Notes under the pieces: generated by a model
Seen by the model: only the letters and a program-made list of their open reading frames with translations
The model's database searches: none
Told to the model about the DNA's origin: nothing
Assembly (NCBI GenBank): GCA_041739675.1
Contig: JBGSNL010000030.1
Location: forward strand, 1 to 22,205
Reading direction: 5' to 3'
Origin: a bacterium
GTDB taxonomy: Bacteria; UBA10199; 2-02-FULL-44-16; DYJF01
DNA length: 22,205 nucleotides
Shown here: one piece after another, positions 66 to 19,545 of the stretch
How the letters are laid out: every line of letters starts with the position of its first letter
Position numbering within the stretch: the stretch's first letter is position 1
Made by a program: the position numbers and the translations under genes

Positions 66-1454
66 ATGGGCGATGTTGCGGCGGCAAAATCGGTATTTGA
101 GCGGTTCTACGAGAGGTTTGAGCCGTTTTATGTCGCAAAATGCGGCGAGGGAGACACGTTTCCCCTCATTGCCGCCGACTATTCATCCTATCTCGATGCG
201 CGCGGCATCGATGCCCGCCAATTGCTCAGAGGGCCGCCCTCTCAGGCAATGTCGACATTCGAGGGCTTCATCGGGGACGGCGAAGGTTGCCATCACGACT
301 CTCCCACTGGGCAGGCGATAAGCGCCGCGCGCGAAATCAAAGCCGTGAAGGATCCCACTCAGCGCACGCTGGCCCTATTCCGTTTTGTGGACGCATACCT
401 TCATAAAATAGAGAAACTTCACCTGCTGGCGGTGAACGCAGTGCAGATGGAGACCGCCCCGTCTTTCATGCTCGAATCAATACATCAGCTGGCAGTCTCT
501 TCCGAGAACCTGATCGCCAGATTTTGGGCCGAAATAAAGCAACCCGTTTCGCGCGCCTCATCACCTGCTATGGTCGCCGATATGTGGAGGGCGCTGCAGA
601 ATCACTTTCAACCGGCCGGAAGAGAGATCGCGTATGCGCAGACGGCCTTCGTTGAGACGATACATCACGTATTAAGGGCCGCGCTGCTGGGCGTCGATCC
701 GTCCAGGGGGCTCACGGAGAGCGGATTACCCCGGTTCCTGGGCCCGTTCCTGAACGTTTACAGAAAATTCGGAAATCCGTTCGAATGGATACACTGGTCC
801 TATGTCCACAACGCGTTCGATAACAAATCGCTGATCGTGGTCGGTCCGCGGACAATTCCGAACATCAACCCCGTGAGTCCCACAGAGATACGCCGCGTGA
901 TCGATCTCATCGTTTTCAACGCTTCTCTCGTTGCAACGCGCCAACACACAGTGCACATAGAGTTTTCGTGGGATCACAATCAAAGACTGATGAACGTCAC
1001 CTCAAGAGAGCTCGCGCAGATGCCGGCTGCGTTCTGGCGGCAGATATCACAGCTCATAGGCGATTGGAACCCGACGATCGTGCATCTTGACTACGGCTCG
1101 GCCATGATCTCGATCCCCGTTCCTCTCAAGGGGGATTCCATCACGCCGCCGCCCGGCGAAAAAAACGGCGGCGGGAACGGTTCCGAACGGCCGCCATACA
1201 GCCGCGATGTCACGAGCGGATCCACGCAGGAAGGAACGGTCACGGGAACCTTCTCGCCGGAAGAGGTTTCGTCCGGCCACGTAATCGGAAGGATCCGGTC
1301 ACGAGCGACGGTCGCGAACAGAAACGTCGCCGGGGCCCTGCGCTTCGCCGGCAGATCGAGAAGCATCTACCGAATTCCCAGCCGTTCTTTTTTCGACAGA
1401 ACGGCTAGTGCGGTATTTTCACTTCAGGCACGACCGCTCTGCTTCGCAAATTGA
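66..1454 (+). CDS. Orphan paralogue 1: putative degenerate histidine-kinase-like protein with VTGTFSPEE motif and basic C-terminal tail
   Basis: The ORF is open from position 3. ATG at 66 is preferred because GGAAAGG lies upstream and it puts the conserved Cys-Gly at residue 26, against residue 27 in paralogue 2. It shares CG...CH, [ND]PxxW and VTGTFxPxE motifs with its neighbours. Confidence 0.75.
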   Translation: MGDVAAAKSVFERFYERFEPFYVAKCGEGDTFPLIAADYSSYLDARGIDARQLLRGPPSQAMSTFEGFIGDGEGCHHDSPTGQAISAAREIKAVKDPTQRTLALFRFVDAYLHKIEKLHLLAVNAVQMETAPSFMLESIHQLAVSSENLIARFWAEIKQPVSRASSPAMVADMWRALQNHFQPAGREIAYAQTAFVETIHHVLRAALLGVDPSRGLTESGLPRFLGPFLNVYRKFGNPFEWIHWSYVHNAFDNKSLIVVGPRTIPNINPVSPTEIRRVIDLIVFNASLVATRQHTVHIEFSWDHNQRLMNVTSRELAQMPAAFWRQISQLIGDWNPTIVHLDYGSAMISIPVPLKGDSITPPPGEKNGGGNGSERPPYSRDVTSGSTQEGTVTGTFSPEEVSSGHVIGRIRSRATVANRNVAGALRFAGRSRSIYRIPSRSFFDRTASAVFSLQARPLCFAN

Positions 1455-1475
1455 TTTTTTAGCAAGGGCTTTTCC

Positions 1476-2810
1476 ATGCCGTCAACTTCATCGACACTTG
1501 TCAACGCGCTGGACCGTTACAGCAATCCCTTCCTCGGCATGTACGAGAGTTCATGCGGCGACAAAGGGTCATACGTAGCGGTGAGACCGAGATTCCTGAA
1601 TTTCGTCACATCAAGAGCTACCGAATCGATAAAAGAGGGAAGATTCAAAGACGCTATCTCGTACGCGTCGATCGCGATGGGGCTGGCTCCGGTGGCCGCC
1701 GCCGCCAACGCCTTCGAAATGTTTTTGGACAACAAAGCCAACTGCCATGAAAATTCCATTGCCGGCGAGGCATTTTCGATGGCCGGCGCTTTTGTTAAAG
1801 AACCAGGCAAACTTTCACTCCATTTCTATGATAACAAAGAGTTCGTGGCAATATCAGACCCCACCCGCCTCTACATAGGATGGCAAAAATCGGTAACGAC
1901 CTACATGGAGCATGTCGCAGACCTTGAAGAGATAGTGAGGGCGGCGAAAGGAGATGTGAGCCCAGATGTCAAACGGATGATATGGGCGGCTGCCAACCGG
2001 GCCGAGATTTTCGCTGGCATCGTTAACCGTACAGTGAGATTGTTGAAGACGAGTTTTGCGGGTTCCGTGGCATGGAACATGGTGAGGCAGCAGCACGGCA
2101 GGATCAACAACTTCAGGAACGTCGTCTATCAACTAAGAGAAGCAAGCCTTCCGGTTTCAAAAGTCGAAAACTCCCTTGAAGCGGCCAAGAGCCATTTCGT
2201 TGAATCGTTGGAAGAGCTCCACGATCCGTTCGACTGGATAGCTCAGGTTGTTTCATGGTATCAACCCAAAAACGGCGCGGCAAAAAAATTCAAAATAGTG
2301 TTTCCGGAAAATAGCGCCAAGCTGAGAATCGACAAAGCCGACGCGTTATGGGAGATAATCGACTGGGTGGTCATCGTCGCGGACAGATCCGGAAGCGAAC
2401 AAAAACCGCTGACAATCGAATTCGGTCTGAACGATGAAAAAAATCTGGTCATTCGAATACCGCTGGTCGAAACGCACGTGTGGTCGTACATCGACGCCGT
2501 CCTGCGTCGAGTGAGGGGATCGAGGCTGACCGTTTTGAGAGACGACGCGTTTTTCACGGAGGTCAGGGTGCCGCTGAAAGATGCGTCTCCCGCGCCGGAA
2601 AGAGGCGGGGGCGGATCGGTCACCGGAACTTTCAGGCCAGACGAAATATCGGGTCCTTTACCGTCTCGCGGGGCATCGCCGGCCGCCCTTTCCAGCCATT
2701 CAAGACGCGCCCGCGGTTTCAGGCCGGTCATCAATCCGTACTTTTCGCCCATTAGAGTTTGGGGGGCGGCCAGAGCCGTTTTTAGGGCCCCAGCCGTCTT
2801 CGCAAAATAA
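1476..2810 (+). CDS. Orphan paralogue 2: same family, 444 aa
   Basis: Long ORF starting 21 nt after paralogue 1, with AAGGG upstream. Collinear motifs CG, CH, HDPFDWI and GSVTGTFRPDEI, then an Arg-rich tail. Confidence 0.8.
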   Translation: MPSTSSTLVNALDRYSNPFLGMYESSCGDKGSYVAVRPRFLNFVTSRATESIKEGRFKDAISYASIAMGLAPVAAAANAFEMFLDNKANCHENSIAGEAFSMAGAFVKEPGKLSLHFYDNKEFVAISDPTRLYIGWQKSVTTYMEHVADLEEIVRAAKGDVSPDVKRMIWAAANRAEIFAGIVNRTVRLLKTSFAGSVAWNMVRQQHGRINNFRNVVYQLREASLPVSKVENSLEAAKSHFVESLEELHDPFDWIAQVVSWYQPKNGAAKKFKIVFPENSAKLRIDKADALWEIIDWVVIVADRSGSEQKPLTIEFGLNDEKNLVIRIPLVETHVWSYIDAVLRRVRGSRLTVLRDDAFFTEVRVPLKDASPAPERGGGGSVTGTFRPDEISGPLPSRGASPAALSSHSRRARGFRPVINPYFSPIRVWGAARAVFRAPAVFAK

Positions 2811-2814
2811 TCAC

Positions 2815-2853
2815 GCAACTTTTTTTGCGAATGTGCGAAAAGGGGGATGAAGG
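2815..2853 (+). promoter_or_regulatory. Conserved upstream element, sigma-28 (FliA)-like promoter GCAACTTT-N11-TGCGAAAA followed by GGGGGATGAAGG
   Basis: 30/39 ungapped identity by hand count to 10268-10306. Bases 2811-2841 are 25/31 identical to the reverse complement of 19637-19667. The spacing equals that of the FliA consensus TAAAGTTT-N11-GCCGATAA. Confidence 0.6.
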
Positions 2854-2865
2854 ATAAGAAAACGT

Positions 2866-5800
2866 ATGGTAAGAGTCAGGCTGCAACAATCCATCCTCGA
2901 TTACCTGCCGTATAAAGCGGCCTATGTCTGGCAGTTCAGGCGGATGGGCAGCGATCCTCAATCCATAGAAACTCTTGATGAGAGGGACGTCAGGACATTT
3001 ATTGCAGAGAAATTTCCCCACCTCTCGCGCTTTCGCCTGGCACCCCACTTAGCAGACGATTATGCAACCGCATTGGGTCAATACTTGAGTGTTCGCTTTG
3101 GGCATCCGGCTGCGAGCCAGACTCCCACGGTGGACGTCGCTACAAGACCCAGCGCAGCGCCGGGAGCCGAGACTGTTGCGATTCGATCACCGGCTTTGCG
3201 CGAAGACCGGCGTCCAACCAGTGAACACCATATATCGCCGGAACTGGCCAGACGATGGGATTCACAGGCTTCGGGCTTGCCGCAACCTCCCGATGGCCGA
3301 AAAACTCAGGAAATGCCTGTCGTTCCCGAACCGGGTCAGAGAGCCGGCTCGGTCTTCATACCGCCGCCGCGCCCATTACCACAGGCACCTTCTGCACCGG
3401 CACAACCCGGCACAACGCCGCGGCCGCAACCTTTGCCTTCGGCACCGCCCAGACCGGACGCTTCACCACTGCCAAGACCTTTACCGCCGCGGCCTCAAAC
3501 ACCGCCGGCTCCAGTTGCACCTCCGCCGCCTTCCCGTGCAGCTACACCGGGAACAGCCACACAAGTGGCGCTTCAAGCTGCGGCCGATCAAATCGATTCG
3601 TCGCCGACAGGCGACCCGCGTATGACACAACAGGGTGCGGCAGCCCCGGGACAACCGGCGCCGCCAAGACCGGCGCCTCTTTATCCGCCGGCGCTGCCCA
3701 GTGCGACACAAGTTGGAGCAGCTGTTGACGGGCTTTCAAGCGGTCCAGCAAGCGGTCCGGAACCTCTCCCGCGATTTACCTATGCCGGGCCGCCGTCACT
3801 TGACACAGGATCTCCTCTATCTCCGCCGGCACCGTTTCCAATAGCACCTCCGCCGATCGCACCTCCAGCTCCTGTTGCACCTCCGCCGGCACCGGCAGCA
3901 GCCCCCGCGGCAGCGTCAACATCTTCCCCCAGAGTTACCTCTGCGGTGACAAGAGATCTTCCTGCGCAGGCGGGGACCGGACCTTCAAGCCCGGTTATTC
4001 CTCCGCCTCCGCCAACGGCACCTGCAGCTGTAGCACCGTCCGCAGCCGCTGCGCCGGCACAGAGCGGGACGATGTCGGAAAACGTGTTCATGGCCAATTA
4101 TCAGAGGTTGCAGGCCCACATAGGCAACGTCCATCTTGCATTCCTGACGGGCCTACGCGGAGACGCGCCGCCGGTTGAGATGACCTATGGACTTTTGATC
4201 AATGAGAGCGTCCCGTCGCGACAAGGAATGCTTGAAAGCAATATCGCAGTCGCACCCTACAAACTGCGTTTTATTATCAGCGCGGGCGGCGTTATACGCC
4301 GGATTGACTTACTGAATCCGGAGCTCAACCCGTATGCCCAGATCATCACCAGGCTCGCCGATGAATATAACGTGGATCAGATGGAGCAGCTCGAATATCA
4401 TCTCTCCGGCGATCCGTCGATCGACGACGAAGGACGCAGAAGACTTGGTGATGCGATCTTTGCGAGCCGCGAGTATGCAACGATACATCCGCGGGTTCTC
4501 CTGTTTGGAGAGTCTTCGGGCGAGACTTCAGAGATAGCGGTTGCCGCGCGGCGCGATTCCGGCCCGCCGCCGGTTGAACAGGCAAGCATTGTCCCGCCTG
4601 AAGCTGCAGCAGTCGCGGGAGGTATGAGAGTCATCGTATGGGAAGGACCTCGGGATCAAGTAACAGGAAACACGCCGCCGGCAGGACCGATTCCACCGGC
4701 ACGGCCTGTGGCAGTCGGTTCTCATGGCGAGCCAAGAAGAATTTTGCCGGAGACGTTCACGGCCCCGCCGGCGGGCACAAGGGCAAGCACACCCCCTGCC
4801 ACGGATGCGGATCCATTCGCCTCTGAAACCCCAAGGATCAGGTCAAGTGCGATCAATCTTGCAAACACCTTAAGAACTGCAGGCAGCGCGCAGGCCCGTC
4901 TGGCTGCCTGGCAGAACATACAGATCCAGTATCTGAGCCTTCTGGGAAAACTCGTTCGGCTAATCGAAACCGAGTCCGTCGGTCTCTCTCTACCCGGCGC
5001 ATTCGGCGTGCAGTCGCGCCAAGCGATTCTGAGCATGGCGAAGAACACGGACATCTTCGCGGGAATTGTATTCACAACCGCATGGGACGTGACAAAACCG
5101 TTTGCCAGCAAGCCGAAGACTGCAGAACAGGCATTTCTTCTGACCCAGATGAAAATGATCTCGGAGATCAGAAAAAGCGTCGCGGAGTTGGCAAAGATAA
5201 TCGACCCCAGCCGCCCCAGCACACCGGCGCAGGTTTCAGAAGCGGTTTCGGCCACACAAACCGGGTTGGAAGTCTTCAATAACCCGATCGCGTGGACCGA
5301 CAAATTCCTAACGACCATACGCGAGTTCGGGGGAAAATTTAGCAGACGTTTGGCAAGAGTTACCTCGTCCACGCAAGGCAACTGGTCCAACGTGGAGTTC
5401 CAAAAACCTCAGCAGTACATCGACCTGATCGGCAAAATGCTGCTCTTCGTTTCCGACAGCCACTGGTCGAGGTTTTTCAGAATCAGGAACCGTAAGATCA
5501 AATTGAATTTCGAATGGGTTCGCACGCCCGCCGTGATCAACAAAAAGGGCGTAATCAAAAAACCCGAAGAGATGAAACTTGTGGTGAGCTCCAGATCATA
5601 CGACTTCGGCGGATGGTTCAGGGGCATGAGATGGCACGCTGACGGTTTGAGACAACTCGTGAACGAAATGGGCGGCGAGTGGCACAACCCCAACCGTATC
5701 GGAAGAACTCTCAGACTTCTCTTGGCGTTCATACCGGCAGTGCGCCGCAGCAGAGCTCACAGACTCATAGTGCCGATCTCCATCGTTCAGGAAGGCGGCG

Positions 5801-6096
5801 TAGTCGTATCGGGCAGCGGAATGCCTGCGCCTCCAGCACCCGCGTCCGGCAGCCCGGCAACCGGAGCCACGCCGTCTACGGTCACAGGACTCGTCAGTCC
5901 GGAGGCGCTAGGAGAAACGATAGTGGCAGGTCACCCTGTAGACCCGTCGATTTCGACATATTCACATTCCCAACGCTCGCAACAGGCACAGCGCCGCATG
6001 ATCCAGCAGCGACAAGGCTGGGTGCAAAATGCTCAAAGAACGTGGGGCGCTTCGGCCGCGGCAGCCGCTGTAAGGGTGCCGGTGCGAGTGCGCTAG
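2866..6096 (+). CDS. Orphan paralogue 3: 1076 aa, with a long Pro/Ala-rich region, a degenerate HK-like C-terminal core, the VTGLVSPE motif and a basic tail
   Basis: Long ORF with AAGGA upstream of the ATG. Pro/Ala low-complexity region at about 3280-4070. Motifs DPSR, FNNPIAW, GLRQLVNEMGGEW and STVTGLVSPEAL. Confidence 0.8.
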   Translation: MVRVRLQQSILDYLPYKAAYVWQFRRMGSDPQSIETLDERDVRTFIAEKFPHLSRFRLAPHLADDYATALGQYLSVRFGHPAASQTPTVDVATRPSAAPGAETVAIRSPALREDRRPTSEHHISPELARRWDSQASGLPQPPDGRKTQEMPVVPEPGQRAGSVFIPPPRPLPQAPSAPAQPGTTPRPQPLPSAPPRPDASPLPRPLPPRPQTPPAPVAPPPPSRAATPGTATQVALQAAADQIDSSPTGDPRMTQQGAAAPGQPAPPRPAPLYPPALPSATQVGAAVDGLSSGPASGPEPLPRFTYAGPPSLDTGSPLSPPAPFPIAPPPIAPPAPVAPPPAPAAAPAAASTSSPRVTSAVTRDLPAQAGTGPSSPVIPPPPPTAPAAVAPSAAAAPAQSGTMSENVFMANYQRLQAHIGNVHLAFLTGLRGDAPPVEMTYGLLINESVPSRQGMLESNIAVAPYKLRFIISAGGVIRRIDLLNPELNPYAQIITRLADEYNVDQMEQLEYHLSGDPSIDDEGRRRLGDAIFASREYATIHPRVLLFGESSGETSEIAVAARRDSGPPPVEQASIVPPEAAAVAGGMRVIVWEGPRDQVTGNTPPAGPIPPARPVAVGSHGEPRRILPETFTAPPAGTRASTPPATDADPFASETPRIRSSAINLANTLRTAGSAQARLAAWQNIQIQYLSLLGKLVRLIETESVGLSLPGAFGVQSRQAILSMAKNTDIFAGIVFTTAWDVTKPFASKPKTAEQAFLLTQMKMISEIRKSVAELAKIIDPSRPSTPAQVSEAVSATQTGLEVFNNPIAWTDKFLTTIREFGGKFSRRLARVTSSTQGNWSNVEFQKPQQYIDLIGKMLLFVSDSHWSRFFRIRNRKIKLNFEWVRTPAVINKKGVIKKPEEMKLVVSSRSYDFGGWFRGMRWHADGLRQLVNEMGGEWHNPNRIGRTLRLLLAFIPAVRRSRAHRLIVPISIVQEGGVVVSGSGMPAPPAPASGSPATGATPSTVTGLVSPEALGETIVAGHPVDPSISTYSHSQRSQQAQRRMIQQRQGWVQNAQRTWGASAAAAAVRVPVRVR

Positions 6097-6114
6097 AAAA
6101 ACCCCCCTTTTTTA

Positions 6115-6142
6115 TTGCCAACAATTGCCCGTCTGATAATCT
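6115..6142 (+). promoter_or_regulatory. Putative sigma-70 promoter, TTGCCA-N16-TAATCT with extended -10 TGn
   Basis: TTGCCA at 6115-6120, TG at 6134-6135 and TAATCT at 6137-6142, upstream of the acyl-CoA synthetase gene. Confidence 0.4.
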
Positions 6143-6172
6143 TTTTGCCTCCACAAAATCGGAGGTAAAAAG
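6141..6172 (+). promoter_or_regulatory. Hairpin that sequesters the Shine-Dalgarno sequence of the 6172 gene
   Basis: CTTTTTGCCTCC (6141-6152) pairs with GGAGGTAAAAAG (6161-6172): 12 bp with one G-U pair and an 8-nt loop. Confidence 0.55.
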
Positions 6173-8283
6173 TGCTGGATAAATTTTTCAGTCCGCGTGC
6201 GGTGGCCGTCGTCGGCGCATCAAGGGAAGAAGGGAAGGTCGGCCACTCCCTCATGAAAAACCTTGTGGACCACGGCTTTGCCGGCCCCATATATCCGGTA
6301 AATCCCAAGGCCACAGACGTGCTGGGCAAAAAATGTTTTTCCGATATCTCATCGCTTCCTGATGGAATTGATCTCGCCGTCATAGCGATCCCCGCCAAAC
6401 TTGTTCCCAACGCAATCGAAGAGTGCGGCAGAAAAGGGATAGCCGCCGCCATCGTCATATCGGCGGGCTTCAAGGAAGTGGGCGAAGAGGGAAAAGAGCT
6501 GGAGCAGCAGCTCTTCAACGCAGCGATGGCATCGGGTGTGCGCGTTCTCGGCCCAAACTGTCTGGGGCTCATAAGCACTAAGGCAAAACTCAACGCCTCT
6601 TTTGCGGCGGAGCACCCCGAAGACGGCGACATATCCGTAATCTCGCAGTCGGGCGCGCTTTGCACAGCGATTCTCGACTGGGCGGTGAGAAATCACATCG
6701 GCTTTTCAAAACTCGTCTCGATCGGAAACAAAGTTGACATAGATGAAGAGACTTTGATCGAGGCGCTAAGCGAAGATTCCCACACAAAAGTGATCGTGGG
6801 CTATCTTGAAGATATTGCAAACGGCCCCCATTTCATGAGGACAGCGGAAAGGGTCACTAAGAAAAAACCGATCATTTTGATCAAGGCCGGAACAACAGAG
6901 GCGGGCTCCAAGGCCGCAAGCTCGCACACGGGCTCCATTGCCGGCGCGCGCATGGCATATCAGTGCGCGTTCAGAAGAAGCGGCGTCTTGCAGGCGCCAT
7001 CTCTCGAAGCCCTTTTCGATTACGCGCAAATTTTTTCCTATCAGCCGCTTCTCAAAGGGCGGCGCATAGCAGTACTGACAAACGCAGGCGGTCCCGGGAT
7101 CATGGCGGCCGACGCGGTTGAAAACATCGGGTTAAGCTTTGCTGTAATATCGGATGCGACAAAGGCGAAATTCAGGGAATTCCTCCCTGCGGCGGCAAAC
7201 ATATCGAACCCGATCGACATTCTTGGAGACGCCCCCGCCGAGGTCTACGGCAAGGCGCTGAAAATAATTTTGGAGGAAGAAGGTGTCGACGGGGTCGTCG
7301 TACTTTTGACGCCGCAGGCGATGATAAACGTGGAAGAGGCCGCGCGCCAGATCGCGCATACTGCGAAAGATCACGCAAAACCCGTCGCCGCATCTTTCAT
7401 CGGCGCCGAGCGCGTTGCAGAGGGAATCGAAATCCTTCAGAAGAACCGGATACCCCATTACCCCACGCCGGAGCGCGCAGTGGAAGCGCTCTCCATGCTG
7501 GGCGAATACGTGAAGTGGCTCGAACGGCCAAGACGCGTGATAAAACGCTTTGCGGTTAACACAATGAAGGTGGACCGTGTCATCAGGTTTTCGCAGAAGC
7601 GCAATCAGTTAAACATCGGCGAGCAGGAATCGAAGGAGATACTGGCCGCATACGGTTTCACGGTTCCGCGCGACAGCCTTGCAAGAAACGCCGACGAAGC
7701 GGTTTCTCAGGCATCGGTGATAGGCTATCCCGTCGTCATGAAAATCGTTTCTCCCGATATAGTGCACAAGTCGGACGCCGGCGGCGTTCGCGTGGCCCTC
7801 ACTGGCCCGGGACAAGTGCGCGACGCCTTTGAGCTGATGATGATGCGCGTTCATGACAAAGAGCCGGGTGCGCGCATCCACGGAGTTCTCATGCAGGAGA
7901 TGGTGACCGAAGGGCGCGAGATCATCGTCGGCATGACGCGCGATCCGCAGTTCGGCCCCATGCTAATGTTCGGGCTGGGCGGCATATACGTGGAAGTCTT
8001 GCGCGACGTCTCGTTCCAGCTGGCGCCCATCACATCCGAGGAGGCGTTGGAGATGCTCTTCGGCACAAAGACGTACAAACTTTTGCAGGGTGTGCGCGGA
8101 GAAAAATCGGTCGACATGCAGCTCGTCGCCGAATGCATACAGCGCATCTCGCAGCTCTCCATGGACTTTCCGCAGATCGAGGAGATGGACATAAATCCTT
8201 TGAAGATAAGCTCGGAGGGCGCGCGGGCAGTTGCGGTGGATGCAAGGATCAGAATCGGAGGAGAAAATAATGTCGAACTATGA
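6172..8283 (+). CDS. Acetate/acyl-CoA ligase (ADP-forming), fused alpha and beta subunits
   Basis: GTG start with GGAGGT upstream. CoA-binding domain (AVVGAS, YPVNP, GPNCLG), SQSGA, phosphorylatable His in SSHTGS, TNAGGPG, and an ATP-grasp domain (GYPVVMKIVSPDIVHKSDAGGV, DPQFGP, DINPL). Confidence 0.93.
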   Translation: MLDKFFSPRAVAVVGASREEGKVGHSLMKNLVDHGFAGPIYPVNPKATDVLGKKCFSDISSLPDGIDLAVIAIPAKLVPNAIEECGRKGIAAAIVISAGFKEVGEEGKELEQQLFNAAMASGVRVLGPNCLGLISTKAKLNASFAAEHPEDGDISVISQSGALCTAILDWAVRNHIGFSKLVSIGNKVDIDEETLIEALSEDSHTKVIVGYLEDIANGPHFMRTAERVTKKKPIILIKAGTTEAGSKAASSHTGSIAGARMAYQCAFRRSGVLQAPSLEALFDYAQIFSYQPLLKGRRIAVLTNAGGPGIMAADAVENIGLSFAVISDATKAKFREFLPAAANISNPIDILGDAPAEVYGKALKIILEEEGVDGVVVLLTPQAMINVEEAARQIAHTAKDHAKPVAASFIGAERVAEGIEILQKNRIPHYPTPERAVEALSMLGEYVKWLERPRRVIKRFAVNTMKVDRVIRFSQKRNQLNIGEQESKEILAAYGFTVPRDSLARNADEAVSQASVIGYPVVMKIVSPDIVHKSDAGGVRVALTGPGQVRDAFELMMMRVHDKEPGARIHGVLMQEMVTEGREIIVGMTRDPQFGPMLMFGLGGIYVEVLRDVSFQLAPITSEEALEMLFGTKTYKLLQGVRGEKSVDMQLVAECIQRISQLSMDFPQIEEMDINPLKISSEGARAVAVDARIRIGGENNVEL

Positions 8284-10135
8284 TTGGCGGAACGTATATC
8301 AGAAAAAACTTGTGAGCGCGCGCGAGGCCCTTTCACACATAAAATCGGGCGACAAGATATTCATCGGAACGGGTTGCGCAGCTCCGCAGGCGCTCATCGA
8401 AGCCCTGACCTCCGAGACGCAGAACGTAGACGACGCCTCCATCTTCCATTTGTTGACGATGGGTGTCGCGCCCTACGCGCAGGACAAACTGCACGGCCGC
8501 TTCCGCTTCAACAGCTTTTTCATAAGCCAGAACGTGAGAGAGGCGGTCCAGCAGGGGTTGGGCGACTACACGCCGATATTTCTCTCCGAGATCCCCAGGC
8601 AGTTCGAGTTGGGGCGCATACCTTTGGATGTGGCGCTCATCCAGACGACGCCGCCCAACGCGGAAGGCATGGTGAGTTTAGGCATCTCCGTTGACATCGT
8701 GAAAAGCGCCGCGGAAAACGCAAAGCTCCTGATAGCGGAGGTCAATCCCCGCATGCCGTGGACGCACGGCAACTCGCTCATCCCCGTCGATTACATAGAT
8801 TTCCTTGTTGAATCCGACATGCCGCTTTTGAACTACGAGCCGCCCGTCATCGACGAAACTATAAGGGCGATCGGGCGGAACGTCGCCTCGCTCATCGAAG
8901 ACGGCTCAACGATCGAAGTGGGCATCGGCGCTATTCCACAATCGATACTGGAATTTTTGAGGGATAAAAAAAATCTGGGCATCCACACGGAGATGTTCAC
9001 CGACTCGCTCATAGAGCTCATCGAATCGGGTGTGATCAACAACTCCAAAAAAGTGATCGATCAGGGAAAAACCGTAGCGTCTTTCATCATGGGATCGGAG
9101 CGCCTGTACAAATACGTAAACGGGAATCCCGCAATCGGGCTCCATCCGTCCGAATACGTCAACGACCCGTTCGTGATAGGCCAGCACCCGAAGATGGTGG
9201 CCATCAATGTGGCGCTTGAAGTGGATCTCACAGGACAGGTCTGCGCGGATTCCCTGGGATACAAATTCTATTCAGGCATCGGCGGGCAGGTGGATTTCAT
9301 CCGCGGCGCGGCAAGATCGCCCGGCGGGAAACCCATCATCGCGATGAGGTCCACGGCAGTGAACGAAACCGTTTCGCGCATCGTACCCCGCCTCTCGGAG
9401 GGCGCGGGAGTTGTGACCACGCGCGGAGACGTCCACTTCGTGATAACTGAATACGGCATCGCGGACCTCCACGGCAAAAGCATACGCGAACGCGCCATCT
9501 CCCTCATCAACATAGCGCATCCCAAATTCAGAAAAGGACTTTTGGATGCGGCGAAGGAGATCCACTACGTCTATAAAGATCAGGCGGAGATTGCCGCCGC
9601 CCCCTACCCCACGGAGCTTGAGCGTTGCGTGGTCATCGCCGACGGCACGGAGGTGACGCTGCGCCCGATAAAACCCACCGACGAAGAGCCGATGCGCGAT
9701 CTTTTTTATTCCATGTCGCAGGAGAGTCTCTACTACCGTTTCTTTCAGGTTCCCAAGAGCATGCCCCACGACCGCGTCATGCAGCTCGTCAATATAGATT
9801 ACGAAAAGGACATGGCGCTCGTGGCCACGGTCGAAGAGGTTTCAGGAGAGAAGATAGTGGCTGTAGGCCGTTACATGCGCTCCTCGGAGGACGACAAATT
9901 TGCCGAGGTGGCCTTCCTCGTCCGCGATGAATGGCAGAACCGCGGAATGGGGCGCGCCCTATTGGGCTCGCTCATCGATGTGGCAATCGAAAGACATATA
10001 CAGGGCTTTATCGCCACCGTTTTGCCCGCCAACAAGCAGATGCTGACCGTCTTCCACACCTGCGGCTACAAGCTTAAAATGTCCTCAGAAGAAGGGGTCT
10101 ACCAGCTCTCCTTCCGCTTCGACGAACCCTTGTAA
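8270..10135 (+). CDS. Acetyl-CoA hydrolase/CoA-transferase fused to a C-terminal Pat-type GNAT acetyltransferase
   Basis: ATG at 8270 with GGAGGA upstream, overlapping the previous gene by 14 nt. Transferase motifs GIGAIP, HTEM (catalytic Glu), GIGGQVDF and VITEYGIA. GNAT motifs LRPIKPTD, SLYYRFF and AEVAFLVRDEWQNRGMG. Confidence 0.92.
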   Translation: MSNYDWRNVYQKKLVSAREALSHIKSGDKIFIGTGCAAPQALIEALTSETQNVDDASIFHLLTMGVAPYAQDKLHGRFRFNSFFISQNVREAVQQGLGDYTPIFLSEIPRQFELGRIPLDVALIQTTPPNAEGMVSLGISVDIVKSAAENAKLLIAEVNPRMPWTHGNSLIPVDYIDFLVESDMPLLNYEPPVIDETIRAIGRNVASLIEDGSTIEVGIGAIPQSILEFLRDKKNLGIHTEMFTDSLIELIESGVINNSKKVIDQGKTVASFIMGSERLYKYVNGNPAIGLHPSEYVNDPFVIGQHPKMVAINVALEVDLTGQVCADSLGYKFYSGIGGQVDFIRGAARSPGGKPIIAMRSTAVNETVSRIVPRLSEGAGVVTTRGDVHFVITEYGIADLHGKSIRERAISLINIAHPKFRKGLLDAAKEIHYVYKDQAEIAAAPYPTELERCVVIADGTEVTLRPIKPTDEEPMRDLFYSMSQESLYYRFFQVPKSMPHDRVMQLVNIDYEKDMALVATVEEVSGEKIVAVGRYMRSSEDDKFAEVAFLVRDEWQNRGMGRALLGSLIDVAIERHIQGFIATVLPANKQMLTVFHTCGYKLKMSSEEGVYQLSFRFDEPL

Positions 10136-10151
10136 ACCTTTGATCCTCTTG

Positions 10152-10234
10152 TGTCATTCTGAGCTCGCTACATTTGTTGGCGAGCGAAGAATCCCAATGA
10201 CATCAAGGGGATCCTTCGCCTGCCGGCTCAGGAT
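10152..10234. repeat. TGTCAT-tagged composite palindromic (REP-like) element
   Basis: Reads TGTCATTCTGAGC...GCGAAGAATCCC-N12-GGGATCCTTCGC...GCTCAGGAT. Nested stems: 10156-10164 with 10226-10234, 10184-10195 with 10208-10219, and 10163-10168 with 10180-10185. Confidence 0.7.
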
Positions 10235-10278
10235 TGCTCAGAAAATGAAAAAACTTTCATTTTCTGAGCAACTTTTTT
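10234..10278 (+). terminator. Perfect 17-bp inverted repeat followed by CTTTTTT; candidate intrinsic terminator or operator
   Basis: TTGCTCAGAAAATGAAA-AAAC-TTTCATTTTCTGAGCAA (10234-10271), then a T6 run at 10273-10278. Confidence 0.55.
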
Positions 10279-10306
10279 CCAAATTTGCCGAAAAGGGGGT
10301 TGAAGG
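10268..10306 (+). promoter_or_regulatory. Sigma-28 (FliA)-like promoter GCAACTTT-N11-GCCGAAAA followed by GGGGGTTGAAGG
   Basis: The -10 box matches GCCGATAA at 7/8 with the canonical 11-nt spacer. Related copies lie at 2815 and 19663 (minus strand). Confidence 0.65.
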
Positions 10307-10341
10307 TAGCTTTCCGTAACAGGGGGAAAAAGGGGGCAATA

Positions 10342-13300
10342 ATGCCGACAATACCGTTTAGACCTGTCTCTGATATCGAACATGATATCCCTGTATGTTC
10401 GCCCGATAGGGACCTGTGCCAGTTGCGAGTCAGAATTGATGGTAATGATGTTGATGTCGCGTGCTATGAAAGCCAGTTTATGCACACGACGCCTGCCTTC
10501 GCCGCCACGCACAACTTGTCTCTCGAGCAGTACAACAGCGGTCTGGAGTGGCTAAACGCCCACTACCAGAACGTCTGCCGCAGTGAATATGTCGATACGA
10601 GCGATCAGGACGGAAGATTCGAGCTCTTCTCATTCAGGATAATGAACAGGTCCGACGTGCAGGCAGAGGCCCGGGGGATAGTGGATGCCGTAGTCGGCGA
10701 TGCAGCGGGAGGCGCAGGCCTGCCGGGTGTCCTCGATCCGAATAATTTTCCCACATGCAGCGCCGAGTTGGGCGACGATAACGGAGGTAAGTTTCCGACA
10801 GTATGGTTGTCCGCTGCCGGGGCTGATTATCTTTCGGCAAAATTTGCATCACATAACCGAATGGTGGGCTGTTTCATAGAATCACTAACTGATCAGAACG
10901 GTAAGGTTCAATACTGGCTTCCACCTATTCCCGAGATTCTTCGGCCTGTGATTGATGAGATAAGAACAGATATAAGAAAAAATACGGTCCCTGAAAATGT
11001 TGGGGCAGCGGATATCGTGAGGTCACTCGAAACTATCCTTGAAAAAGATCCCACGCGCTTTCCTTCACCGGAGTGGACGACGCAGGATATTCTCAACGCA
11101 ATTTTAGGCGGCATGGGCGTTCTGACCTCAGTTGTAATCGGAGTATTCTTTTATCTGTCACACAGACAGAATAAACGTATCGCAGAAGGACGCTTTGGTC
11201 CAGAGGTGAAGCTCGAAGATTTTACAGACGACCTTGTAGAACAGGCGAAAAAAGATCTGGCCCGAAACAACCCCAACCGCGAAATCAATGAAATCATCGG
11301 CCGCGATAACGAGGCCATAGAATTTCTCAACAGGCTTGCTCGTCCTGAATACTCAAACCCATTCTTGCTCGGAGAATCGGGGAGCGGAAAAGACATGATC
11401 GTCAAAAGAGCGGCGCAGTTGATCGCACTCAGGGATCACCGAATTCCGGACATCTTTCTGAGAGGTGATATCCAATTGCGTTATGTCGATCCTACTGCAT
11501 TTGTTGCAACGGAGGGTGTCGTCGGATCGAACGGCAGGCGTGTTAAGCTCATCGAAGACGCAATGAAAAAGGGGAATAAATTCTATTTTCCCGAGCTCGC
11601 CGACTCTGCTACTGCCGGTGCCCACTCGCGCGGAACTGCTGAGCAACTTGGTTCGCTTCTGAAATCCATATTGGACAAACCATGGTCCGGTTTTTCTGCC
11701 TCCACGACACCGGATGGTTACCAGGTTCTAATGCGAAACAAATATTTCAAGGATCTCTTCCGCCGCCAACCAGCACAGCGTGTCGAACCGATGTCTCCCG
11801 ATATAATCCGTAACGTCATGACAACGCGAATTGCCCCATGGTATGCCAGCCACGACAGCGTGACAATCACGCCAGAGGCACTGGAAACTGCAATTCGTAT
11901 GGGATATGATTTCTATACGAAAACGGGGCTGGCCGGAGAAATTGGCTTTGGTGAGGTTGACGCGTGCAAGCAGGCTCTATCCAACGGCATACTTGAGGCG
12001 ATGAGAGAATCCGGTTGGAAAAAGTCCGGTCTTACCATTACACCTGATCACATAATTAAAGCTGCAGAGCGAGCATTACAGATAAGTATTCCTTCAATTC
12101 CTAATCCAGCCCCCGACAGTGCAGCCAAAACTCCGGAACGTCCCGGTGGGCCGACGGACGGATCGCCGGTTGTGCATCGCGCCGGTCTAGTCTCTCCTGA
12201 AGAGTTTGCGGCAACGTTGCACGATTTCATCAAGACGACCGAGTGGTCGGATGTGTGGACGAGGGTCAGAATCGGGGCAACGCGCACCGCTTCAGGATTG
12301 GGCGAGTTCGCAAAAGGATTCGTGGAAAATCTCGGCGGGCTGGGCGTAGGTTTCGGCGCTGCAGAATTTTTGAGCGCCGCGGCGCAGGCTGCGCACTTTG
12401 GGCCCATTCAAACCATGGCTACGGTTTTGGGCGGCACGCATGTCGTAACAACGGCCGCAGCCAATGTGGAGGCGAGAAGCGCAGCGACCTTTTTCACGAG
12501 AACCCTTGGCGCCGAATCTTGGAGATCGTTTGCCAGAGGCATGCCCTCAGTCATGATCGGCATGGCAGTATACGATCAGGCGATCAATGCTGCATTCGGC
12601 GAAAATGGCGGCGGGGCAGTGGGAGATTTCGCCCGCTTCGGTGGAACGAGATTCGCCGTCGGCGGATACGTGATGCCCCAGACAGCCCGGGCCGCGGTGG
12701 GATCGATCACCGGCATGTTGGAAAAACGAGTGGCCGCAGGAGCTGCGGGATTTTTGACCCGCGGAGCGTTGGCCACGCTGAGCTTTGTCGGCGACGTTGC
12801 AGTACCTGTCGTCGGTTGGGGCCTCATGGCTTATGAGACCGCGCCGATTCTGGCGCTGAAGATGGCTCAGGACGATCCCAATTTTGCGTCGAACATGAAA
12901 GACGCTTGGGCGCTTCACATCTACCGCGCGCATAAGATTGGTGACGCTGAAGCTGAGAAGACCGCATGGACCGCCGCGGGCGATCCGTACAGCGACATAG
13001 ACATGGTGGATGCCGCATCGGGCGCAGAGTTGGACGCCGCGCGCGTCTATGTGAACGGCGTGATCATGAATCAGGCGAAGGCCGCCCGGGAGCAGCTCAT
13101 GAGCGTGCTTCAGATGAAGATGCTGGGATATGCAAGTGAAGCCGAACAGCAAGGTCTGGCCTCCAATCCGGCACAGTTCATGAACACGGTGCTCTCCAAG
13201 ATGGATACGTTTATGTCGGGGCTGGAACAGGAAGTGGAATTCAACAGCAAGGAAGTCGAGTACAAAAATTACATAATGAATCTTATGGAATCCGGCACGA

Positions 13301-13734
13301 GCCCAAGGGATATCTTCATGGGGCTGATCGGCGGAAGCAACGACATCTCGTTTGTCGGTTTGCCCGTGATGAGACCGGATGAGGCCACGGCGTTCCTTGA
13401 AAAACTCGAAGTCTCTATGCTTCAGAAGACGATGCAGTCGATCGCTGAACTCAGACCTCCGTTCACAAGCGCCGACGGCGCCTACACAGGGACACATATT
13501 CCGAACGAGGACCTGTGGAATATGATACAGGGTTATTCGGATTCCGATGGTTACGCGCAGACCCCATTGGCAACACCATGGCGCCCTGTGGCGAGACCCT
13601 TTGCCTATGAGCAGGCCGACGGTTCGATTACGATGCCCAACGTCGACAATGGCGTGACGGATTCCCTGTTCGGCATCTTTCTTAAAGAAACGAACGCTGC
13701 AGAGCTTCTGGGCAAGATGATTGAGTGGGAATAA
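10342..13734 (+). CDS. Orphan multidomain protein: N-terminal domain, TM helix, degenerate ClpA/ClpB NBD1-like AAA+ domain, AGLVSPEE motif, Gly/Ala-rich hydrophobic C-terminal region
   Basis: ATG at 10342 with AGGGGG upstream; the TTG at 10285 lies inside the promoter element. Clp-like segments FTDDLVEQAK, IIGRDNE, NPFLLGESGSGKD, STTPDGY, LFRR and VTITPEALETA. Hydrophobic helix at about 11089-11157. Confidence 0.8.
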   Translation: MPTIPFRPVSDIEHDIPVCSPDRDLCQLRVRIDGNDVDVACYESQFMHTTPAFAATHNLSLEQYNSGLEWLNAHYQNVCRSEYVDTSDQDGRFELFSFRIMNRSDVQAEARGIVDAVVGDAAGGAGLPGVLDPNNFPTCSAELGDDNGGKFPTVWLSAAGADYLSAKFASHNRMVGCFIESLTDQNGKVQYWLPPIPEILRPVIDEIRTDIRKNTVPENVGAADIVRSLETILEKDPTRFPSPEWTTQDILNAILGGMGVLTSVVIGVFFYLSHRQNKRIAEGRFGPEVKLEDFTDDLVEQAKKDLARNNPNREINEIIGRDNEAIEFLNRLARPEYSNPFLLGESGSGKDMIVKRAAQLIALRDHRIPDIFLRGDIQLRYVDPTAFVATEGVVGSNGRRVKLIEDAMKKGNKFYFPELADSATAGAHSRGTAEQLGSLLKSILDKPWSGFSASTTPDGYQVLMRNKYFKDLFRRQPAQRVEPMSPDIIRNVMTTRIAPWYASHDSVTITPEALETAIRMGYDFYTKTGLAGEIGFGEVDACKQALSNGILEAMRESGWKKSGLTITPDHIIKAAERALQISIPSIPNPAPDSAAKTPERPGGPTDGSPVVHRAGLVSPEEFAATLHDFIKTTEWSDVWTRVRIGATRTASGLGEFAKGFVENLGGLGVGFGAAEFLSAAAQAAHFGPIQTMATVLGGTHVVTTAAANVEARSAATFFTRTLGAESWRSFARGMPSVMIGMAVYDQAINAAFGENGGGAVGDFARFGGTRFAVGGYVMPQTARAAVGSITGMLEKRVAAGAAGFLTRGALATLSFVGDVAVPVVGWGLMAYETAPILALKMAQDDPNFASNMKDAWALHIYRAHKIGDAEAEKTAWTAAGDPYSDIDMVDAASGAELDAARVYVNGVIMNQAKAAREQLMSVLQMKMLGYASEAEQQGLASNPAQFMNTVLSKMDTFMSGLEQEVEFNSKEVEYKNYIMNLMESGTSPRDIFMGLIGGSNDISFVGLPVMRPDEATAFLEKLEVSMLQKTMQSIAELRPPFTSADGAYTGTHIPNEDLWNMIQGYSDSDGYAQTPLATPWRPVARPFAYEQADGSITMPNVDNGVTDSLFGIFLKETNAAELLGKMIEWE

Positions 13735-13831: not shown

Positions 13832-13838
13832 ATCTTTG

Positions 13839-14282
13839 ATGAGAGCAAAGCCCCCAACCGAACCGAAAATTCACGTAGCGATCTCCAAAAATCTCAAATG
13901 GGTGGAGCCGTATTTGAGGCGCGCGAAAAAAAGAATGCCCACGCTTCTCATGCCGAAACGCATCCGCTCCTACTGCCCCACACTCAAGAAAGAGCACTTA
14001 AGCTGGGGATCATGCGACATGGAGACGCGCACGATCACGCTTTGCACGCACAAGATCATCGTTATGAAGGGGTTGAAGCGCAGCACAAAAAAACAGGTGG
14101 CCCTCTCCGAAAAAGAAATGCTGATGACGCTCGCCCACGAGATCGCCCACCTTCGCTATGAAAAGCACGGCTACGAGCAGGAGAGCTACGGGCGAATCGT
14201 CTTTCACGCGATGGGGGTCACCGACACCTGCCCCACCTGCAACGGTAAGGGGGAAGTCCCCGCGGAGTATAAAAACGATTGA
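13839..14282 (+). CDS. Small zinc metalloprotease-like protein (SprT/YgjP/WLM-like minigluzincin) with a C-terminal CxxCxGxG
   Basis: WGSC...TITL and [15 protein letters not shown] (HEXXH plus a third His), and CPTCNGKG near the C-terminus. The stop codon overlaps the cysK start. Confidence 0.75.
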
Positions 14283-17301: not shown

Positions 17302-19545
17302 TTAATTGGTGTGAATTTTAAGACTGTCGCCGGGTTTCACGGCTGAAGGATCTGAAAGATTGTTCCACTGCTGAATATCGGCAATCGTGACTTTGTGGCG
17401 ACGCGCTATGTCCCAGAGGGTGTCGCCGTCTTTCACCTTGTAGTTGAGGCGGGATTGCTGCTCCGGAAGCGGGATATCGGAAAGCTTTATGGGCGACCCT
17501 TCCTCTTTTTGCGGCACCGGCGCTACGGCAGCCGGCTCTTCAATCTTTTCCACCGTCTCAGCTTGCGGCACTGGAGCCGTCTTCTGTATCGGCGCCTTCT
17601 TTGCCTCCTTGATTTGAACTTCCGGCTTCCGACTTCCGACCTCCGTCGTCTTGATCTTCAAGACCTGACCGGAGCGAACGACTTTGGGATTTTTGATTCC
17701 GTTCCATTTCATAATGTCACTTACTGTCACACCATGTTTCTTCGCGACAGCACCCAGCGAATCACCCTTCTTCATTGTGTATTTTTTTGTGACCGCGACC
17801 GGCTTTTTATCCGCCGGTTTTTTTACAGTATCATTCGCGCTCAAGTCTATGTCATCCGGACTCGCCTCCGAGGCAGCCGCCATCGCTATTTCCCTCACCT
17901 CCGTCGACTGAGGCGACTCCTTGGCTTCAGGCTGAACCGAACCTTGTACGGGTTCATCTTTTACCACAATTTCCGCCGCCTCAGGCGCCGCGGCGTCACC
18001 CGAAGCCTCTATGGCGGTCTTGCCCTGCGCCATCTTGACGATGATCTTTTGCCCGGGTTTTATTTTTGCCGATGAATCAAGGCCGTTCATGGCGGCCAGT
18101 TCATCCACCGACATGTCGTAGCGCTGAGCTATGGTCCAAAGCGTATCTCCGGAGCGGATGCTGTGCTTCGTTCCGCCGCCGGAAAGACCGGCATCGGCCA
18201 TCTGCTTTTGTCCCTGCGGAGATTTCTTGGCCACTGTCACCTGCTTATATATCTTCAGCGTCCGCCCGGCCCTCAACGGATTTTTTGCCGTGATCGAGTT
18301 CCAGCTCTTGAGCTGCGCCGGCGTTACACCGAACTTTCTTGCGATCTGGCTCACTGAATCCATTTTTTTCACGCGGTAGGTGACAAGCTTCTTGGTGCGC
18401 ACGGTACTTGTCTCGCCCTCGGAGCTGTCTTCAACATACGCTGCGCGGCCGCGCGGGACCACAAGCATCGTTCCGGCCCGCAATTTGTGTTTTGTTGAAA
18501 TATCGTTAGCCGCTATGAGCGAACCTTTCGAGACTCCGTATCGCTTCGCAATTGTCGCCACGTTTTCTCCGCGGCGCACTCTATGATAGACAACCTTCAC
18601 GCGCTCGCTCTCTGGAAGCGAGGCATACTTGGTCTTGAAGGTTGCGGTTGTTCCCTTTGGCAGATTGATCTGATAATTTCTGGCACCGGGAGGCGTCGCT
18701 CCTCTCACGAGGTGCGGGTTCAAATCGGAAACGGCATCGGGTGAAACTCCCGCGCAATCGGCTATCACTTCAAGATCGGTCTGCGTCTCGACCGAGGCAA
18801 CGTCGTACTCCAGAGGTTTTTGGGAACTGGCGAGTGAAAAACCGAAATTCTGCGGCATCTTTGCAATTATCGCCGCCGCTATAAACTTGGGAACATAATC
18901 GCGCGTCTCAGCCCTCAAATGTCTTTCGCGCGAATCCGCTATCACCCAGAAATTTCTGGACCCTGAATTGGCAATCGCCTCTCTGATCCTTCCCTCTCCA
19001 GCATTGTAGCCGGCCATAGCCAGATACCAGTCGCCAAATTCATTATAAAGGTCCCTCAAATATCTTGAGGCAGCCCATGTTGCCTTGACGGGATCCCGCC
19101 TCTCGTCCTCCCACCCGTTGATATCCAGATCGTAACGCGACCCCGTTCCCCTTATGAACTGCCAGGGTCCCACGGCGGCAGCCCTTGAGTACGCGTTGTT
19201 GTTGAATCCGCTCTCGATCATTGCGACATAGATAAGATCCTGCGGCAGGCCGTTCTGCTTCAAAATATCCCGCATCATCTTCATATAGCGGCCGGAGCGG
19301 TCCAGATATCTCTGGAAATGGCCCCTTCCGGCGCCCTGAAAGTAATCCATCCATGCATAGACGCGGTCGTTTAGGGTCAAAGGAACGTCAGATTGGGGGA
19401 GATGGCCGAGATTATGCTCGGCTGTGAACTTTTGGCGCTCGGCCTCATTATGATAGCGCGACCTGCTATCGGCCAAACGATCCTTTGCGCAACCGGCAAA
19501 TAGAAAAAAAACCGCCCCAACCGCCAGAAGAGCTCGAAACCTCAT
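17302..19545 (-). CDS. mltD: MltD-like lytic transglycosylase lipoprotein with five LysM domains
   Basis: Signal peptide with lipobox FAGC. SLT motifs MIESGF, AVGPWQF, DERRDP, AGYNAGEG and ETRDYVPKF. Five LysM repeats, with acidic/Pro-rich linkers before the last two. Confidence 0.9.
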   Translation of the reverse strand: MRFRALLAVGAVFFLFAGCAKDRLADSRSRYHNEAERQKFTAEHNLGHLPQSDVPLTLNDRVYAWMDYFQGAGRGHFQRYLDRSGRYMKMMRDILKQNGLPQDLIYVAMIESGFNNNAYSRAAAVGPWQFIRGTGSRYDLDINGWEDERRDPVKATWAASRYLRDLYNEFGDWYLAMAGYNAGEGRIREAIANSGSRNFWVIADSRERHLRAETRDYVPKFIAAAIIAKMPQNFGFSLASSQKPLEYDVASVETQTDLEVIADCAGVSPDAVSDLNPHLVRGATPPGARNYQINLPKGTTATFKTKYASLPESERVKVVYHRVRRGENVATIAKRYGVSKGSLIAANDISTKHKLRAGTMLVVPRGRAAYVEDSSEGETSTVRTKKLVTYRVKKMDSVSQIARKFGVTPAQLKSWNSITAKNPLRAGRTLKIYKQVTVAKKSPQGQKQMADAGLSGGGTKHSIRSGDTLWTIAQRYDMSVDELAAMNGLDSSAKIKPGQKIIVKMAQGKTAIEASGDAAAPEAAEIVVKDEPVQGSVQPEAKESPQSTEVREIAMAAASEASPDDIDLSANDTVKKPADKKPVAVTKKYTMKKGDSLGAVAKKHGVTVSDIMKWNGIKNPKVVRSGQVLKIKTTEVGSRKPEVQIKEAKKAPIQKTAPVPQAETVEKIEEPAAVAPVPQKEEGSPIKLSDIPLPEQQSRLNYKVKDGDTLWDIARRHKVTIADIQQWNNLSDPSAVKPGDSLKIHTN
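17619..17646. repeat. Short heptamer tandem repeat within the mltD linker
   Basis: CTTCCGG CTTCCGA CTTCCGA CCTCCGT. Confidence 0.45.

Follow-up and report, generated by a model that had tools for sequence, protein, structure and literature searches.

The window analysed here is a 22,205-nucleotide stretch of DNA (JBGSNL010000030.1) that constitutes one entire contig (C20) of a bacterial genome of 1.91 Mb, designated G000, represented by 88 contigs and 94.6% complete. On its forward strand it carries three open reading frames (ORFs), ORF1, ORF2 and ORF3, whose products terminate in a common C-terminal tag, and a fourth one, ORF4, which had been proposed to belong to the same set. ORF1 (66..1454; the start was set by alignment with the orthologue of the sister genome of the same genus, G001, and the frame is open from base 3) combines a degenerate histidine-kinase fold with a tag of 72 amino acids (aa; 1236..1454), in which the core TVTGTFSPEEVSSG is followed by an Arg-rich tail free of acidic residues. 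ORF2 (1476..2810, 444 aa) is modelled as a helical bundle, a fold of the GHKL-type catalytic domain (residues 249-370) and a disordered tail, with the 64-aa tag (2616..2810) having a predicted local distance difference test score (pLDDT) below 50. ORF3 (2866..6096, 1076 aa) comprises an N-terminal domain, a long Pro-rich region, a paralogous histidine-kinase-like domain (approximately 4849-5780) and again a tag of 72 aa (5878..6096). Counted back from the stop, the motif of these three proteins begins at 72, 64 and 72 aa, respectively, and the last 45 aa contain 7-8 Arg, 0-1 Lys and 0-1 acidic residues. They belong to a genus-specific C-terminal tag family of about 40 orphan proteins, connected with a non-flagellar type III system through its promoter and the location of its genes.

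The original prediction was built on four 12-aa peptides, one in each of ORF1 to ORF4, all of which are indeed present, and regarded them as one shared tag. A tail profile devoid of any tail from this contig, with 871 sequences scored of the 1011 C-termini of untagged long ORFs, placed ORF2, ORF1 and ORF3 at ranks 1-3 with 27.0-28.1 bits (E of about 1e-7), followed by a tagged gene truncated by a contig end (13.3 bits) and then by background, where the site of ORF4 is found (3.1 bits, rank 21). The likeness of the tails of ORF1-3 is hence not due to chance, and the shared motif holds for these three and not for ORF4. Iteration of the tail profile over all 14,714 six-frame ORFs of the genome converged on 40 proteins encoded on 19 contigs, an independent whole-genome search using alignment A1 (35 tails of the 40 members) gave 42 matches, and with a looser motif pattern 14 sites were obtained, 12 of them 54-70 aa upstream of the stop. 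These findings bear out the expectation of further matches on diverse orphan proteins at a fixed distance from the C-terminus, with 40-42 such proteins and 32 cargo groups. A strict motif, G[TL][FV][SR]P[ED][EA], matches only the four sites initially noted among the 14,714 ORFs; it was overfitted, and for this reason the family had stayed hidden.

The unit that is conserved is the entire tail of about 70 aa rather than the 12-aa motif initially taken for the tag. It consists of a module of 63-78 aa with a Gly/Pro linker, the sequence [ST]VTGLxxxGE and an Arg-rich tail without Lys and acidic residues; within the core STVTGLxxTGETSGG, V and G are invariant and one E is nearly so. The distance from the start of the core to the stop is 63-78 aa in all 37 members measured of the 40, and in two further proteins the core lies at a distance of 103 and 125 aa from the end and is separated from the Arg-rich tail by an insert. 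When a plain pattern was counted in bins of 10 aa among 1049 ORFs, 18 and 20 occurrences fell at 60-69 and 70-79 aa from the end, as compared to 1-9 in every other bin up to 200 aa. Taken together, the last 45 aa of the 40 members contain 299 Arg and 5 Lys, and no more than one acidic residue is present there in 39/40 members versus 7% of 603 other long ORFs. The tails end in small hydrophobic and basic residues and their mean column identity is 28%; tagged genes stand in tandem clusters, and the tails of the C36 and C37 clusters are nearly identical. Altogether, the tail is almost certainly a real shared functional module. CTERM-type sorting signals (PEP-CTERM, GlyGly-CTERM and their kin) do not describe it: the tails lack a hydrophobic segment, the proteins lack signal peptides, and the comparison of 35 tails with NCBIfam gave no match except an unrelated one at E 0.016. 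No description of such a tail was found in the literature searched (text of open papers).

A histidine-kinase-like fold had been proposed for ORF1-3 and is well supported for all three, for ORF2 by model and fold search, for ORF1 by its homology to ORF2, of which it is a paralogue, and for ORF3 by E 2e-14 with a profile built without ORF3. The predicted model of ORF2 (pLDDT 74.5), helical at the N-terminus from residue 4, matched the histidine kinase EL346 in Foldseek (E 5.6e-4), and residues 249-370 superimpose on the ETR1 catalytic domain with Z 11.6 and a root-mean-square deviation of 3.4 Å over 117 aa; a helical match to ClyA ties at Z 11.8, of a kind that the tool flags as common among bundles. 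A profile match to WalK was obtained at E 0.007. ORF2 thus shares the helical bundle and GHKL sandwich of the DHp-CA core of EL346, ETR1, PhoR and WalK, but its domain has only about 120 aa, lacks a sensor or transmembrane part and is 9-16% identical. While the DHp-CA fold is present in the model, alignments reveal that the residues of the H, N, G1 and G2 boxes are absent. Because the N-box Asn is replaced, the G boxes are not recognisable and the phospho-accepting His is not conserved, the domain shared by ORF1-3 is, as judged from its sequence, a predicted pseudo-kinase. The family was found in 6/93 genomes of the phylum sample (93 genomes of one class, comprising 24 families), and a search of a 5.8-billion-sequence set returned no ORF2 homologue besides ORF2 itself. 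In the ESM Atlas, ORF2 was placed near unnamed clusters (0.91) and HisKin-conflict (PF22561, 0.88), which provides a lead only.

Degenerate enzymes are, however, not the rule among the cargos, which had been suggested from the domains preceding the motif. BLAST comparison sorted 43 cargos into 32 groups, and a Pfam match of any kind was obtained for 6/40 tagged proteins scanned. Those that can be named are cytoplasmic enzymes (a GHKL ATPase, an SNF2 helicase, an HD hydrolase and a B12/radical-SAM enzyme) with intact catalytic motifs, as is also the case for the tagged GHKL protein of G001. Hence, loss of catalytic residues describes ORF1-3 and does not extend to the family at large.

The absence of an obvious signal peptide, already remarked for the proteins of this locus, extends to the family: by a crude hydrophobicity rule in which Tat signals were not scored apart, and with gene starts estimated by a crude rule of our own, a Sec-type hydrophobic start was counted in 1/40 tagged proteins versus 417/1625 other genes. 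The first 25 aa of tagged proteins are richer in G, S and P and poorer in K and L, and a start of the form M-x1-3-G-[GAD] is found in 14/40 of them versus 47/1625 other genes.

A second common feature is a promoter-like element. Upstream of ORF3 (2815..2841, +) lies a sigma-28-like sequence, GCAACTTT-N11-TGCGAAAA, with two changes from GCCGAWAA and a score of 31.1 bits, and ORF4 is preceded by an exact one, GCAACTTT-N11-GCCGAAAA, with 39.5 bits (10268..10294, +). Both are contained in a 39-nucleotide repeat (2815-2853 and 10268-10306, 77% identical), which had been noticed from the outset and is real, being part of a genome-wide promoter-like family. No such site was found before ORF1, which lies at the contig edge, and ORF2 (best scores -8.9 and -11.9), so that the proposed co-regulation of all four ORFs is shown for ORF3 and ORF4 only. 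In the whole genome, GCAACTTT-N11-GCCGAWAA has 14 exact occurrences, and a matrix trained on 23 sites revealed 71 sites above 20 bits as compared to 0, 0 and 1 in three shuffled genomes. The promoter is found in 85/93 genomes of the phylum sample, with 2 matches overall for the reversed control. Its predicted enrichment at tagged genes was also observed, since it precedes 16/40 tagged versus 45/1625 untagged genes.

The -10 part of this element equals the sigma-28 consensus GCCGATAA given in the available part of PMC12784957, and a gene of the FliA/WhiG family lies within the type III operon, as would be expected of a sigma-28 late regulon. However, the -35 is GCAACTTT and not TCTAAAG (0 TAAAG-N14-GCCGAWA versus 23 GCAAC-N14-GCCGAWA sites), flagellin is lacking and the regulon comprises orphan cargo, envelope proteins, smc and recN. 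On sequence grounds we regard the upstream element as a sigma-28-like promoter. Apart from these sites, a perfect 17-bp inverted repeat followed by a T run, resembling a terminator, is found at 10234-10271 and overlaps the -35 box of the ORF4 promoter, and a sigma-28-like site of 35.4 bits (19637-19663, -) precedes a LysM lytic transglycosylase gene (17302-19545) and is also present upstream of its orthologue in genome G009.

A secretion apparatus accompanying the tag had been anticipated and was found in the form of a non-flagellar type III system encoded by the same genome. SctV, SctN and SctR score above the NCBIfam cut-offs, SctU nearly reaches it (356 versus 358), and SctJ, SctL, SctQ-like, SctT-like and SycD-like proteins remain below; FliK-like (ruler) and FliG-like genes are present as well, and no flagellin was found in the genome. 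The gene for the FliA/WhiG-family sigma factor is split across the ends of contigs C5 and C87, between type III genes, and in the C37 cluster the fourth tagged gene is followed within 70 bases by the start of sctU. A SctV/FlhA-family gene is present in 60/61 genomes of the class. Among other systems, no match in the genome was obtained for VirB10, VirB4 and VirD4, for each of which the search matched 2-7 control genomes, nor for TssC, and HlyD exceeded its cut-off in 0/22 genomes (best value 36 bits in G000 versus 209); no marker of a type I, IV or VI system was thus found in this 94.6% complete genome. Two secretins are encoded, one PilQ-like and the other placed by context in a type II operon, along with GspE-, PilB- and PilT-like ATPases. 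A CesT search gave 0/22 genomes and likewise 0/14 controls. The type III operon also contains small genes without Pfam support (L201:1687-2277 and 3836-4270; L202:8552-9055), whose ends presumably resemble needle, rod and translocator subunits. Proteins with FHA/YscD cytoplasmic domains adjoin sctV (L203:894-3071, 6249-7382); in Myxococcus, FHA genes are overrepresented in kil clusters, as stated in the accessible part of PMC12428579.

Beyond G000, a related tail is present on at least 21 proteins of G001. A profile of 12 G001 tails identified 22 places in that genome, and the 10 non-seed places (9 proteins) are all located 57-125 aa from the stop. The V-x-G-L-x4-E spacing is the same in both genomes, while the G001 tails are less Arg-rich and their cores stand partly in tandem as decaying copies. 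A G001 cluster syntenic with the window, upstream of the same operon, comprises at least 8 genes, all with V-x-G-L-x4-E 53-67 aa from the end or as a long variant. Comparison of G000 and G001 tail profiles gave E 9e-4 with only the core in common. No tail member was found in the 91 genomes other than G000 and G001; a search of 60 relatives gave one weak match with an internal stop, and none was obtained at E 0.01 in 92 genomes. Two matches of the G001 profile outside the genus are internal rather than C-terminal and were discarded. In a set of 1.84 billion representative proteins, all 29 matches came from G000, 28 of them exact and one (P0022) representing the start plus the tail of a C86 protein, and a DNA pattern search of metagenomes gave at least 117 stretches, 17 with a stop 45-90 aa further on, none of which has the tail among the matches listed. 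As a separate observation, a small helical domain, W-x2-[LM]-S-x2-[EQ]-Q, terminates several cargos in four other genera (L209, L207, L210, L211) and in the long variants of G001 it separates the core from the tail (L196).

ORF4 is a co-regulated neighbour and not a family member. It encodes 1130 aa from an ATG at 10342 (10342..13734, +; frame open from 10285) and comprises a Cys-containing N-terminal part, a hydrophobic helix (about 11089-11145), a Clp NBD1-like AAA module (about 11212-11919) and a Gly/Ala-rich C-terminal module of 513 aa (12181-13719) in common with a protein encoded on contig C25, and it lacks a C-terminal tag. The look-alike site VHRAGLVSPEEF (12172..12207, +) stands at the start of this shared module, 519 aa from the stop, and the last 45 aa have 0 Arg and 8 acidic residues. 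On the 12-column matrix it scores 2.3 bits, a value reached by 103/603 untagged long ORFs, and GLVSPEE is kept in 0/5 aligned AAA orthologues, all of them encoded in other genomes. By position, background score and the outcome among orthologues, the proposal of ORF4 as fourth member is therefore rejected. Regarding its supposed ClpB-like fold with lost catalytic residues, the fold is confirmed (ClpC/ClpB NBD1-like, E 1e-11), but all 6 aligned sequences retain the Walker A Lys, the Walker B Glu and the Arg finger and the Walker B Asp alone is replaced, which makes the module divergent and not clearly dead. The 513-aa module is 49% identical to that of the C25 protein, where the site reads SGLPPAAEL.

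That the ORF4 site is a decayed relic of the tag core is doubtful, although both proteins retain G-L-x4-E, the C25 protein shows homology to a tagged protein in its N-terminal part and contains, in its interior, two core-like repeats that follow Gly/Pro linkers, and the tandem G001 cores are themselves decaying. A profile of the helical insert of long tail variants (6 seeds, one in a wrong frame) gave no new member and no link to ORF4. Protein searches with ORF4 returned ORF4 itself, its paralogue on C25 and 7 Clp proteins, a phage search gave Clp-like matches only, and the ESM Atlas yielded nothing useful for the C-terminal module. This module, which could be a membrane-inserting delivery domain, is found only in ORF4 and the C25 protein (L039:1614-5594, -), both encoded downstream of a sigma-28-like promoter. 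Single Clp NBD1-like AAA modules after a hydrophobic helix also occur elsewhere (L002-L007), with YFPE as Walker B and variable N- and C-terminal parts, and this family is found in 7/41 genomes, G000 included.

Between ORF3 and ORF4, an acyl-CoA ligase-like gene (CoA-binding, ATP-grasp) is followed by an acetyl-CoA hydrolase/transferase-GNAT fusion (6172-10135, +), and the same pair lies downstream of the cargo cluster in G001. At 13836-14282 (+) a small HExxH metallopeptidase-like protein with a C-terminal CxxC zinc finger is encoded, for which Pfam matches are weak. Elsewhere in the genome (G000:C31 4077-7839), four small paralogous genes form two divergent pairs and, we assume, resemble four-helix-bundle 23S rRNA intervening-sequence proteins.

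Of the original prediction, the core stands, namely a cargo-linker-tag family with further members, enriched for an alternative-sigma promoter and accompanied by a secretion apparatus, whereas ORF4, the 12-aa motif and the pseudo-enzyme rule do not. The tagged proteins are probably exported cargo. Our preferred reading, to which we assign a probability of roughly 0.45, is that the tail serves as a C-terminal address read prior to export by the type III pathway. According to this reading, the FliA-type sigma factor encoded within the type III operon would recognise GCAACTTT-N11-GCCGATAA and switch the cargo genes on late, by analogy to sigma-28 and late flagellar substrates. The Gly/Ser/Pro-rich N-terminus, often M-x1-3-G-[GAD], would enter the export gate as usual, a single chaperone or sorting adaptor common to all cargos would bind the VxGLxxxxE core as a short strand on its Gly/Pro linker, and recognition would be completed by the unstructured, Arg-rich tail, so that any domain gaining the tail by recombination would join the exported set. 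The cargos, including pseudo-histidine kinases, GHKL ATPase, SNF2 helicase, HD hydrolase and B12/radical-SAM enzyme, would then act in the cytoplasm of prey or host.

Several observations weigh against this reading. In known type III substrates, the signal and the chaperone-binding domain are located at the N-terminus, and positively charged C-terminal tails typify type IV substrates, as far as the available part of PMC10025392 describes them. The promoter is missing from 24/40 tagged genes, and it is not specific for the tag, since it also precedes signal-peptide genes (13/45), smc, recN and the lytic transglycosylase gene; moreover, paralogues among tagged genes are not independent, which inflates the enrichment counts. 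Only 1 of the 19 contigs with tagged genes adjoins a type III gene, a third secretin that could serve the type III system was not found in the genome, a hydrophobic segment occurs somewhere in 5/40 tagged proteins, and at 94.6% completeness another machine may be missing from the assembly. The tail is confined to the genus, with the G000 profile matching 1/93 genomes, while type III genes are class-wide, and even between the congeners detection nearly fails, as the G000 profile has 0 matches in G001, the G001 profile 2 weak ones in G000, and the HHalign probability is 24%. Homologous cargos in genomes G009, G015, G017 and G019 end otherwise, in acidic tails or a small helical domain; the tails are thus particular to each lineage and can be exchanged, an argument against a universal signal.

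Similarities to described systems can be drawn on two sides. In design, the closest is the XVIPCD of bacteria-killing type IV effectors of Xanthomonas, Stenotrophomonas and Lysobacter, together with Arg-rich type IV signals. There, too, many unrelated cargos that lack signal peptides have one C-terminal module in common, composed of conserved motifs and a low-complexity tail (PMC10025392, in the part available). However, the XVIPCD has about 120 aa, is folded, Gln-rich in its tail and binds VirD4, whereas the present tag is about 70 aa, disordered and Arg-rich, and no Pfam match to an XVIPCD or BID profile was found in 43 proteins. The bipartite VirB/D4 signals (BID plus positive tail of Bartonella, the Arg motif of Agrobacterium and the E-block of Legionella) similarly place an acidic or conserved element before an Arg-rich C-terminus, according to the same portion of PMC10025392, but here no BID-like folded domain and no type IV genes were found, and the injection-type system is type III. 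As for the machine, the closest is the needleless type III secretion system of Myxococcus xanthus (T3SS*), also a non-flagellar export apparatus plus sorting platform without its own secretin, and from the delta-lineage; it is needed for prey lysis, with effectors hypothesised only (accessible parts of PMC12075869, PMC10849154 and PMC12428579). Here, by contrast, none of the 4 PF00437 matches is a Tad/Kil ATPase, as read from length and context, and FliK-like, FliG-like and SycD-like genes are present, while no shared substrate tail is described for T3SS* in the parts of these sources available. The available portion of bioRxiv 10.64898/2026.10.21.760627 holds nothing bearing on such comparisons.

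Among the alternatives, an unlikely but credible one is that export depends on the N-terminal signal alone and that the Arg-rich tail acts after delivery, in binding of membranes or nucleic acids, membrane crossing or routing within the target. An Arg-rich and acid-poor composition recalls cell-penetrating peptides and organelle presequences, and the 299 Arg against 5 Lys with almost no acidic residues would suit such a role, as would N-termini with their own compositional bias and tails that differ between families using the same machine, which fits adaptation to different targets. On the other hand, a conserved acidic core that keeps its distance from the stop and is repeated in tandem in G001 looks like a protein-binding motif, and the congeners keep the core although the G001 tails are less Arg-rich.

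It is less probable that the tail is an export signal for another machine, such as the type II/type IVa pilus apparatus, an unrecognised translocator or a type IV system left unassembled. A motif with a positive C-terminal tail fits type IV substrates, XVIPCD and BID plus tail (PMC10025392, available part), and the GspE-, PilB- and PilT-like ATPases, two secretins and the 5% of markers missing leave room for it; yet the searches for VirB4, VirB10 and VirD4 that succeeded in control genomes gave no match here, type II substrates need Sec or Tat starts, which 39/40 tagged proteins lack, and type III genes adjoin both the sigma factor gene and one tagged cluster.

Lower still in likelihood is a turnover or processing tag acting in the producer, either a degron or a protease site, perhaps employing the HExxH peptidase encoded at 13836-14282. 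It would agree with a tail that is unstructured in the model and ends in small hydrophobic and basic residues, and in G009, G015 and G017 the peptidase gene also lies between homologous cargo genes and acs; however, the cargos of these three genomes have other tails, the link may be mere synteny with acs, and a degron needs no conserved motif 70 aa upstream. Moreover, invariance or near invariance is limited to V, G and one E. That the tail has no shared role and was propagated among neighbouring genes by duplication and gene conversion, for which the tandem clusters and the nearly identical C36/C37 tails could be invoked, is very improbable, since tails with a mean column identity of only 28% have preserved spacing, core and charge across 19 contigs and 32 cargo groups, and the tag architecture is maintained in a second species.

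Returning to the tail as an address for type III export, its validity would contradict the rule of N-terminal type III signals, and if the tail serves another machine, that machine lies outside the type I, IV and VI systems searched for. A more far-reaching and rather speculative extension is that type III secretion without a secretin is in use throughout the phylum, its substrates being chosen by a swappable C-terminal tag that is rewritten in each lineage and read by one adaptor, with a 40-member effector arsenal directed at prey under a sigma-28 late programme and with ORF4-type motifs as relics of tag exchange. Substrates of secretin-less type III systems in delta-lineage predators are hypothesised only, as the accessible parts of PMC12075869 and PMC12428579 have it. 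A search with FtsZ gave identities of 45-66% to assorted delta-lineage records without placing the genome, and the phylum sample, with its single class, probably corresponds to UBA10199 of GTDB. From the size of the genome and its secretion genes, we infer that the bacterium preys on or depends on other cells. In a group without a described lifestyle in the literature found, the shared tail, a portable element of 70 aa, marks about 40 of approximately 1,700 genes and provides a list of candidate substrates, while the promoter motif, with its occurrence in 85/93 genomes, offers a second handle on the late programme.

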